64,000 nucleotides of DNA, taken from NCBI RefSeq assembly GCF_009931435.1, contig NZ_CP043414.1; one strand, 5' to 3'. Origin of the DNA: Escherichia coli (lineage in GTDB: Bacteria > Pseudomonadota > Gammaproteobacteria > Enterobacterales > Enterobacteriaceae). Shown here one piece after another: positions 42,463 through 44,423 of this stretch (position 1 is the first letter of the stretch; each line of letters opens with the position of its first letter). The translations under genes and the position numbers were made by a program. Under the pieces are notes generated by a model. The model did no database searches, was not told the origin of the DNA, and worked only from the letters and a program-made list of their open reading frames with translations.

Positions 42463-42855
42463 ATGTACGCAAAATCCTTTCTCGCTCTTGATGGCAACGG
42501 ACGTCTGACGGGCGCCCGTACAGCACAGGCCGCACCTTATGCTCACTACACCTGCCACTTGTGTGGCAGTGCACTCAGATACCATCCGCAATACGACACT
42601 GAACTTCCCTGGTTTGAACACACTGACGACAGGCTGACAGAGCACGGTCAACAGTGCCCTTATGTCAGGCCGGAGCGCAGAGAAATACAGTTGATTAAAC
42701 GTCTGCAGCAATTCGTACCGGATGCCTTACCCGTGGTGCGTAAAGCCAGCTGGCACTGCAGACAATGTCACCACGATTATTATGGGGAGCGGTACTGCAC
42801 ACACTGCCAGACCGGAGGTTTCAGTCTTCCCCGGACAGCTCAGCAACTGTCTTGA
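42463..42855 (+). CDS. Zinc-ribbon protein with CxxC…PWFEH motif (paralog 1)
   Basis: 130 aa; CHLCGSAL…LPWFEH…WHCRQCHHDYYGERYCTHC; paralogous to ORF at 44019-44423. Confidence 0.55.
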   Translation: MYAKSFLALDGNGRLTGARTAQAAPYAHYTCHLCGSALRYHPQYDTELPWFEHTDDRLTEHGQQCPYVRPERREIQLIKRLQQFVPDALPVVRKASWHCRQCHHDYYGERYCTHCQTGGFSLPRTAQQLS

Positions 42856-42864
42856 ACGTAAAAA

Positions 42865-43851
42865 TTATGGAGCAACGTGATGGTACGATTCATTCCATTC
42901 TTCGTTCTTTCTGAGCATTGCGTTCAGGATAGTCAGCAGCTTGCGTATACAGGCAACCAGCGCCACTTTTTTGGGTTTTCCTGCGGCAAGCAGTCGCATG
43001 TAAAACACCTTTATTACCGGGTTAAAGCGGGTTGCGACAAGCGCTGCCATGTACAGGGCTGTTCGCACACCAGCCCTGCCGCCAAAGATGGTTCGTCGCC
43101 CTCTCATCGTGCCCGAGTCCCGGTTTACTGGAACCATACCGACAAGCGCACTGATTTCACGCCTGGAGAGGTTACCCTGTTCGGGTACTTCCGCCAGCAG
43201 CGCAGCAGCCGTCATGGTGCCAACACCTTTAATATTGCTCAGTCGCTTAGCAAGCTCTTTGAAGTGGCTATGGATATGGCTGTTCATGTCAGCATCTAGT
43301 CGCGCAAGCTCGTCTTCCAGTGCTTTGATGATGATATTAATGCTTTTCCTGTTCTATGGATGAGCAGGGTGCAACCGGTTTCTCTCGGCAACCAGCATCG
43401 TAATCAACTGCCGCCTACGAACTACCATTGCAGTGAGAACCTGACATTCAGTATCCGGCAGTGCTCTGATAAAGCGTTCCCGCTCCGGATGCCGGTTGAG
43501 AACCTCAGCCATCTGGTAAAGCACTCTGGCATCAATACTATCAGTTTTCGCGAGGTATCCCATGGTGCGGGCAAAGTCACGAGCTTGTCTGGGGGTAACC
43601 ACGGCAAGCTCAAAACCTTCTGCCTGAAGCGCACAGACTATGGCGGTTTCAAGTCCTCCAGTGGCTTTCATTAAAACCAGCGCAATGGCGTACATTCTCA
43701 ACTCAGCAATGATGGCCTCAAAGCCATCACTGTCATTGCCGACAGAAAATTGTTCAATAGCGCTGCTGGCGGCAATATCCAGTATCGCTTTCGAAACATC
43801 GATACCCACACAAAGTGAACCTGGCTGACTCATGATTACCCATCCTTGCAA
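42865..43851 (-). pseudogene. IS110-family transposase with in-frame amber stop codon (at 43354-43356)
   Basis: N-terminal domain (VGIDVSKAILDIA…, 165 aa) and C-terminal domain (…[17 protein letters not shown]…) are in the same frame separated by a single TAG. Confidence 0.75.
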
Positions 43852-44018
43852 ATGCGTTATGGCGTACTGACAACTGTTCGGGTTTCAGATGAGTGGCTCA
43901 GTGTATGCGCCATTCGCTGAGCTACGGGCTATGAACCCCTTGAGGGATCGGGCTGCATACACCTTGCCAAATCTAATCACAGTTATTTTAACCAATTGTC
44001 AAGATACAAGGAGGAGAT

Positions 44019-44423
44019 ATGCGAATTCTGAACTGCTATATGGCGAATGACAGCAAAGGCCATTTTGTTACGGCGAAAGAAGCCGCGAAGAACAACCGAC
44101 AGGACGTTTTGTGCTGTGTGTCCTGTGGTTGTCCGTTAACACTTAAGCGGGGCAATGACGGACAACCGCCGTGGTTTGAACATGACCAGATGACTGTTGC
44201 TGCGAAAATCCTGCTGCGATGCACCTGGCTTGACCCGGCAGAGAAAGAGGCCCGTCGTTTGCATCTGCAGGGCATGACGGTTCCGGATTATACGGTGAAG
44301 GTGAGAAAGTGGTTTTGTGTGATGTGTGACGAAGATTATGAGGGGGAAAAGTGCTGCCCGCGTTGTGGTACCGGGGTATACAGCAGGGATAGGGGGGCTG
44401 CAGGAGGGCAACTGGAAGGATAG
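44019..44423 (+). CDS. Zinc-ribbon protein with CxxC…PWFEH motif (paralog 2)
   Basis: 134 aa; CVSCGCPL…PPWFEH…WFCVMCDEDYEGEKCCPRC; strong AGGAGG RBS. Confidence 0.55.
   Translation: MRILNCYMANDSKGHFVTAKEAAKNNRQDVLCCVSCGCPLTLKRGNDGQPPWFEHDQMTVAAKILLRCTWLDPAEKEARRLHLQGMTVPDYTVKVRKWFCVMCDEDYEGEKCCPRCGTGVYSRDRGAAGGQLEG

Follow-up and report, generated by a model that had tools for sequence, protein, structure and literature searches.

Two DUF7828 zinc-ribbon genes of a CP4-44-type island separated by an IS110 insertion in Escherichia coli

In a stretch of 64,000 nucleotides from Escherichia coli (the whole of which is here called the window), two small genes whose products carry paired cysteine motifs lie on either side of an IS110 element (Table 1). 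This arrangement raises the question whether the genes belong with the insertion sequence (IS), or have a role of their own in the genomic island that carries them. A preliminary description had offered two answers, namely IS-associated accessory genes or a duplicated island gene used as an IS target. The best overall explanation, to which as a whole we give roughly even credence, combines the anatomy of two zinc proteins, a backbone gene of the island, the history of an IS insertion and an accessory role beside the Rep and AlpA proteins; the strength of each part is given where that part is discussed.

Table 1. Features of the window around the two zinc-ribbon genes
Feature	Position	Strand	Remarks
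AlpA-like helix-turn-helix gene	39811..40017	-	RefSeq feature; PHROG excisionase/regulator matches
YagK/YfjJ ('inovirus Gp2 family') HUH Rep-like gene	41692..42297	+	directly upstream of gene 1
Gene 1 ('MYAKSF' clade)	42463..42855	+	130 aa; RefSeq WP_000271005 'putative zinc ribbon protein'
IS110-family insertion sequence	42844..44008	-	1165 bp; bounded by alignment to the CFT073 empty site
IS110 transposase pseudogene	42865..43851	-	328 codons; one in-frame TGA between 165-aa and 140-aa ORFs
Non-coding left end of the IS	43852..44008	-	where IS110 elements encode the guide (bridge) RNA; putative
Gene 2 ('MRILxCY' clade)	44019..44423	+	134 aa; RefSeq WP_001221631 'zinc-ribbon domain-containing protein'

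Both proteins have the same layout, a DUF7828 domain (a CoiA_N-like C2HC zinc module) followed by a helix and a C4 zinc ribbon. The profile of DUF7828 (PF25165) matched gene 1 with an E value of 4.4e-31 (model positions 1-87 of 87) and gene 2 with 2.3e-30 (2-86 of 87), and that of Zn_ribbon_11 (PF11682, formerly DUF3279) matched them with 3.2e-9 and 8.1e-18, respectively; a Pfam match of gene 2 to CoiA_N was weak (0.018). The two proteins are 32% identical over 125 aa (BLASTP, E 4e-17). They share CxxC, PWFEH and the C-terminal motif W-x-C-x2-C-x2-DY-x-GE-x2-C-x2-C, so that the paralogy and the motifs described earlier stand, except that two residues and not three follow the GE of the last motif. 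In an alignment of 39 members DUF7828 is found in all 39 and Zn_ribbon_11 in 38. The invariant or near-invariant positions (gene 2 numbering) are C33, C36, F53, H55 and C68 in the N-terminal part and W98, C100, C103, G109, C113 and C116 in the C-terminal part. Since the motif positions are conserved across these 39 members, the likeness of gene 1 to gene 2 is not compositional. The conserved cysteine and histidine residues imply two predicted zinc sites; the N-terminal ligands are Cys33, Cys36 and His55, and Cys68 is probably a further one. Taken together, the anatomy and the family assignment of both proteins are held with high confidence. The informative comparisons gave dN/dS values of 0.1-0.3 for gene 1 and about 0.2-0.3 for gene 2, and both genes are under purifying selection. 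The pair arose by an old tandem duplication of a gene for a small standalone protein. A scan for promoters and terminators found sites no more numerous than in shuffled sequence.

The family is already catalogued in Enterobacterales as 'putative zinc ribbon protein' and is uncharacterised. The window proteins match both of its models, DUF7828 and Zn_ribbon_11, over their full length, agree with its members in size, motifs and island context, and have identical RefSeq sequences, the sole difference being the C-terminal tail of gene 1, which was altered by the IS. A profile search of 1.84 billion representative proteins returned 257 relatives. Their length is constant at about 130 aa; among the matches listed the longest has 238 aa and none forms part of a larger protein. 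The relatives named in the AlphaFold database (AFDB) come from Escherichia, Salmonella, Klebsiella, Citrobacter, Enterobacter, Serratia, Pectobacterium, Yersinia, Budvicia, Ewingella, Cedecea and Leclercia. No family member occurred in 50,697 phage records, and just 28 plasmid records carry one, mainly large Klebsiella plasmids with the same gene module. Scans of both proteins against NCBIfam, PHROGs and PADLOC gave no match (PADLOC: 0 families at E<=0.01), the PDB sequence search gave only chance zinc-ribbon matches (E>=0.087), and the literature search found no paper that mentions the family. Its members are near neutral in charge, with a mean pI of 7.5. In UniProt many entries of the family bear the name 'DNA-directed RNA polymerase, beta subunit/140 kD subunit', and a single entry is called 'Competence protein'; the former name looks like a misannotation that the zinc ribbon prompted and that was then passed on between entries.

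At least three clades can be told apart by their N-termini: 'MYAKSF' (the gene 1 type), 'MRILKCY' (the gene 2 type) and 'MQF(R/K)'. A gene of the first clade can lie upstream of a member of either other clade, with a 13-nt overlap, a 51-nt gap or an intervening gene between the two, and sometimes stands alone after AlpA; the other clades often occur singly. Two kinds of unusual members were also observed. One protein of 238 aa (P0084) consists of a ribbon-less DUF7828 N-domain fused to a complete DUF7828 plus ribbon protein, and may be a natural covalent tandem pair or an artefact of a frameshift or of gene calling. Seven others (P0029, P0035, P0038, P0044, P0045, P0030 and P0052), each a singleton cluster, are graded chimeras in which the N-terminus of an 'MNGIK...' clade gives way, at varied breakpoints, to a C-terminus of the gene 2 type, the reverse being seen as well; island copies within an E. 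coli genome may have recombined to produce them, or they may be artefacts of assembly.

The AlphaFold2 (AF2) model of gene 2 (pLDDT 88.8) shows two confident modules joined by a low-confidence linker, and WFEHD, a conserved motif on the surface, combines acidic with aromatic residues. A Foldseek search of AFDB50 returned family members only, some of them under the spurious 'RNA polymerase beta subunit' name. A fused gene1-(GGGGS)6-gene2 AF2 model reached a pTM of 0.43, which neither supports nor refutes a fixed heterodimer. The fold neighbours of the family are CoiA-type domains and not Ogr, and the N-terminal module belongs with the CoiA_N zinc fingers, in agreement with the CoiA-type N-terminal element reported in the preliminary description. 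The comparison sequences of CoiA were retrieved with an approximate CoiA query, and only the real database sequences so retrieved were used from then on. CoiA consists of CoiA_N (PF25164), a PD-(D/E)XK nuclease domain (PF06054) and CoiA_C. The nuclease domain had no match in either window protein or in the 39 relatives, and the window proteins are therefore not CoiA; they also lack the CoiA C-terminal region and stop about 40 residues past the linker. Further differences are the size (about 130 aa against about 320 aa in CoiA), the first His of the CoiA HFAH motif, which is Trp in the window proteins, and the extra C4 ribbon, which is missing from CoiA. The window genes reside on enterobacterial islands, whereas CoiA belongs to the competence regulon and natural transformation of Bacillota. 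CoiA was recently reported to nick the displaced strand of transformation D-loops, no role being assigned to the zinc finger at its N-terminus (bioRxiv 10.1101/2024.02.06.579203).

The segment 41600-44700 of the window is 100% identical to many E. coli chromosomes. In strain 504239 the gene order runs from a YfjI family protein through a hypothetical gene, an AlpA-like helix-turn-helix gene, Hha and an 'inovirus Gp2 family protein' to gene 1, the IS110 transposase pseudogene, gene 2, IS debris and cobU-cobS-cobT; on the other side lie a YeeP-like GTPase, Ag43, DUF932, anti-restriction and YeeS genes. The island in the window is thus of the CP4-44 type and lies beside cobUST. The protein encoded directly upstream of gene 1 matched Pfam YagK_YfjJ_C (1.1e-47) and REP_ORF2-G2P (3.7e-5), and its translation contains an HUH-like motif (HYHLML) and a tyrosine motif (YLAKE). 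The region that separates the island from cobU (44714-47900) is a nest of IS remains: an ISL3 pseudogene, an IS4 fragment, and IS3-family fragments that are split by an intact IS30 (45656-46807, minus strand). The cargo and the integrase end of this island copy have been replaced by IS remnants. No homologue of the zinc genes was found in CP4-44 or CP4-6 (yagK) of K-12, and K-12 has lost this part of CP4-44. The flanking DUF932, anti-restriction, RadC and CbtA/CbeA genes resemble plasmid leading regions. Together with the HUH-like YagK/YfjJ gene, they suggest that rolling-circle replication of the island, or its mobilisation in single-stranded form, may take place.

The same order recurs outside E. 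coli. Divergent contexts, defined as contigs encoding members 22-40% identical to the window proteins, show YagK/YfjJ, AlpA and one or two DUF7828 genes on one strand wherever upstream sequence is available; YagK/YfjJ is upstream of the zinc genes in every such context, and in the relatives outside E. coli AlpA, encoded on the same strand, separates it from the zinc gene. A set of genes in the opposite direction lies on the far side of YagK/YfjJ and comprises some or all of a hypothetical gene of about 275-345 aa, a YeeP-like GTPase, DUF932, anti-restriction, RadC and CbeA/CbtA. Downstream of the DUF7828 genes follows unrelated cargo, including predicted conflict-system genes, McrB, an ars operon, a sigma-54 activator and an RND efflux pump, and in the two loci whose contig reaches far enough a tyrosine integrase lies beyond the cargo. 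After three solo copies of the gene 1 type we observed genes of 210-246 aa (L018 725-1357, L019 1796-2536 and L020 662-1378), which are mutually unrelated by BLASTP, so that the position after the zinc gene is already variable cargo. As the zinc gene keeps its position while the cargo downstream changes entirely, it behaves as a backbone gene of the island, placed after YagK/YfjJ and AlpA and ahead of the variable cargo. No member of the family lies outside the CP4-type integrative islands of Enterobacterales, if the copies of these islands on large plasmids are included. One of these copies, on the Klebsiella pneumoniae plasmid p1-7011.62-NDM1 (L025, 66239-77881), has a module of Gp2, AlpA and two zinc-ribbon genes followed by a second Gp2-type gene and DUF2913, and adjoins an RND efflux operon on IncFIB/IncHI1B conjugative plasmids; a CP4-type island appears to have brought resistance cargo onto Klebsiella plasmids. 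A paper of 2025 reported comparable islands of Pseudomonas, moved by a jumbo phage, in which defence cargo accompanies an integrase, AlpA, RadC and a Gp2-like protein (PMC12595487).

The element between the two genes was recognised as IS110 in the preliminary description, and the NCBIfam profile NF033542 bears this out by matching both minus-strand halves of the transposase (profile positions 1-146 and 205-342). It resembles IS110-family (bridge-RNA-guided) elements such as IS621 in its DEDD/serine transposase family match, in the 2-bp core at both junctions, and in a long non-coding left end with a very short right end. It differs from them in that the transposase is inactivated by a stop codon and the guide RNA is putative. 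The core is an AG dinucleotide on both sides (42842-42843 and 44009-44010; CT in the transposase orientation). The empty site in CFT073 reads CCCCGGACAACTCAG/GAGGAAATATG, and the IS110 target around the CT core is CATATTTCCTC-CT-GAGTTGTCC. The left end is about 160-175 nt long, and the segment 43852-44010 (minus strand) folds better than its shuffles (z -2.9). Within it, AACAGTTGTCAG contains 7 nt identical to the IS right end beside the core (ACAGTTG) and 7 nt identical to the right target flank (AGTTGTC); judged by these identities, it may hold the donor and target guide segments of a putative bridge RNA. An Rfam scan of 40000-46000 gave no match.

Alleles without the IS reveal what the insertion changed. 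In CFT073 and other strains the IS-free genes overlap by 13 nt and encode 133 aa (gene 1) and 136 aa (gene 2). The overlap is kept in a metagenome contig and in a Klebsiella plasmid at roughly 50-60% protein identity; it is the normal state in E. coli and points to coupled translation. Compared with the CFT073 allele, the ancestral gene 1 tail ...PRTTQEEICEF has become ...PRTAQQLS, the last 12 nt of gene 1, stop codon included, being IS sequence (the IS starts at 42844). The proximity of the two stop codons, put at about 10 bp in the preliminary description, is a gap of 9 nt between 42853-42855 (gene 1) and 42865-42867 (transposase), and it exists because the end of gene 1 is IS-derived. The IS entered just 5' of the gene 2 Shine-Dalgarno sequence, at the junction of the formerly overlapping genes, and the ribosome-binding site (GGAGGAG) and ATG of gene 2 were therefore kept, unbroken and directly to the right of the IS.

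The frequency of both states was determined in 5426 complete E. coli genomes with an IS-free query made by joining the two flanks. The joined query matched 3790 genomes (about 70%), with a median of two matching places in a genome and a maximum of seven. When a pair was counted as IS-free if one place covered at least 80% of the joined query, 2448 of the 5426 genomes had such a pair. The IS-containing 3.1-kb segment was present over at least 80% of its length in 644 genomes, and the IS, by the same measure, in 731. Among the matches listed, the near-identical IS copies all adjoin the zinc-ribbon gene, at one place per record, and the next-best E. coli elements are about 75-78% identical. Both annotated transposase copies examined carry the RefSeq note 'internal stop'. 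One site among the copies listed and a pseudogene in both transposases examined fit a single inherited insertion. The now-dead IS110 would have inserted once at AG, 5' of the gene 2 ribosome-binding site, splitting the gene pair and rewriting the last codons of gene 1. This history of the insertion is well supported, and the association between IS110 and the genes is an accident of one insertion.

As to function, the backbone position beside an HUH endonuclease and AlpA, the pair of zinc modules, one of them homologous to the CoiA finger, and the absence of a catalytic domain together suggest a non-enzymatic, zinc-stabilised accessory of the island Rep/AlpA module which binds DNA or a partner protein. 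This reading is our preferred one and is tentative, its probability lying somewhat short of even. The accessory would serve the control of excision, replication or transfer of the island together with the HUH endonuclease and AlpA, by analogy with CoiA, in which a homologous zinc finger is attached to a structure-specific DNA nuclease. As no role is assigned to the CoiA finger, the analogy says little about mechanism. Several observations count against the accessory role: the near-neutral charge and the WFEHD motif are unlike a classical DNA-backbone binder and fit protein-protein contact equally well, and either clade can occur alone. CP4-6 and CP4-44 of K-12 do without the gene, which is therefore not indispensable to a YagK-bearing island. 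A bolder form, in which DUF7828 would be a DNA-structure-recognition or helicase-recruiting subunit acting in trans with the YagK/YfjJ HUH endonuclease, as a 'split' counterpart of CoiA, is conceivable and rather doubtful. If it were true, CP4-type islands would replicate themselves by rolling circle, or could be mobilised once AlpA/Int had driven their excision, and the tandem pair would give two specificities, e.g., for origin and terminus or for the two DNA strands.

Other roles were weighed against that of a Rep/AlpA accessory. The proteins might be zinc-finger transcription factors like P2 Ogr and P4 Delta, which would activate island, cargo or helper genes by contact with RNA polymerase or promoter DNA. 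They are likewise small, cysteine-rich proteins of integrative elements that occur as single, tandem or fused copies, and they are encoded beside the regulator AlpA where the cargo region starts; Delta is a fused Ogr dimer, which a natural covalent tandem such as P0084 would recall. The likeness is nevertheless one of analogy, with no detectable similarity in sequence or fold: Ogr_Delta (PF04606) is missing from the Pfam match lists of both proteins and 39 relatives even at E values up to 10, neither PHROGs nor the phage records contain phage or satellite homologues, and the fold neighbours are of the CoiA type. Such a role is thus unlikely, to about the same degree as the 'split' CoiA form. 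Less likely than a transcription factor, and improbable in our view, is an anti-defence or defence role as the first genes of the variable region and not as island housekeeping. The genes do border a cargo hot spot that often holds defence-like genes, and the island backbone also includes anti-restriction, DUF932 and RadC genes. Against this, PADLOC found no match, the proteins lack the strong acidity of DNA mimics, and the gene stays fixed in place while the cargo downstream of it, with defence-like genes, an ars operon and an RND efflux pump, changes entirely.

The remaining two explanations are far less probable. That the genes are IS110 accessories, or a duplicated gene preferred as an IS110 target, was suggested by the IS lying exactly between them; IS110 elements are sequence-specific, and the arrangement is common to the 644 genomes mentioned above. 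This is very improbable given the 2448 genomes with the pair and no IS, the single IS site among the matches listed and the disabled transposase in both copies examined; moreover, no IS110 lay near the divergent relatives of other genera in any non-E. coli locus examined. The accessory idea of the preliminary description is thereby contradicted; of its alternative, the tandem duplicate of an island gene was correct and the preferred target gives way to a single inherited insertion. The N-terminal CoiA homology could also be that of decayed, functionless remnants of a CoiA-like nuclease gene, which we regard as most improbable of all in view of the dN/dS values, the constant length across the 257 representatives, the proteins' own conserved C-terminal ribbon, missing from CoiA, and the absence of any trace of a nuclease domain in either protein.

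No new kind of system is thus indicated in the window, where the apparent association of an IS with two genes is an ordinary IS insertion in a catalogued gene pair. The interest lies not in that arrangement but in an unstudied backbone gene that is very widespread in E. coli. The zinc gene sits in a small conserved control module, made up of an HUH Rep-like protein, AlpA and a zinc protein, of very common islands that carry adhesins, toxin-antitoxin pairs, anti-restriction genes and defence systems, the cargo on Klebsiella plasmids including an RND efflux pump. The function of this module, once known, would help to explain how such 'cryptic prophage' islands move.
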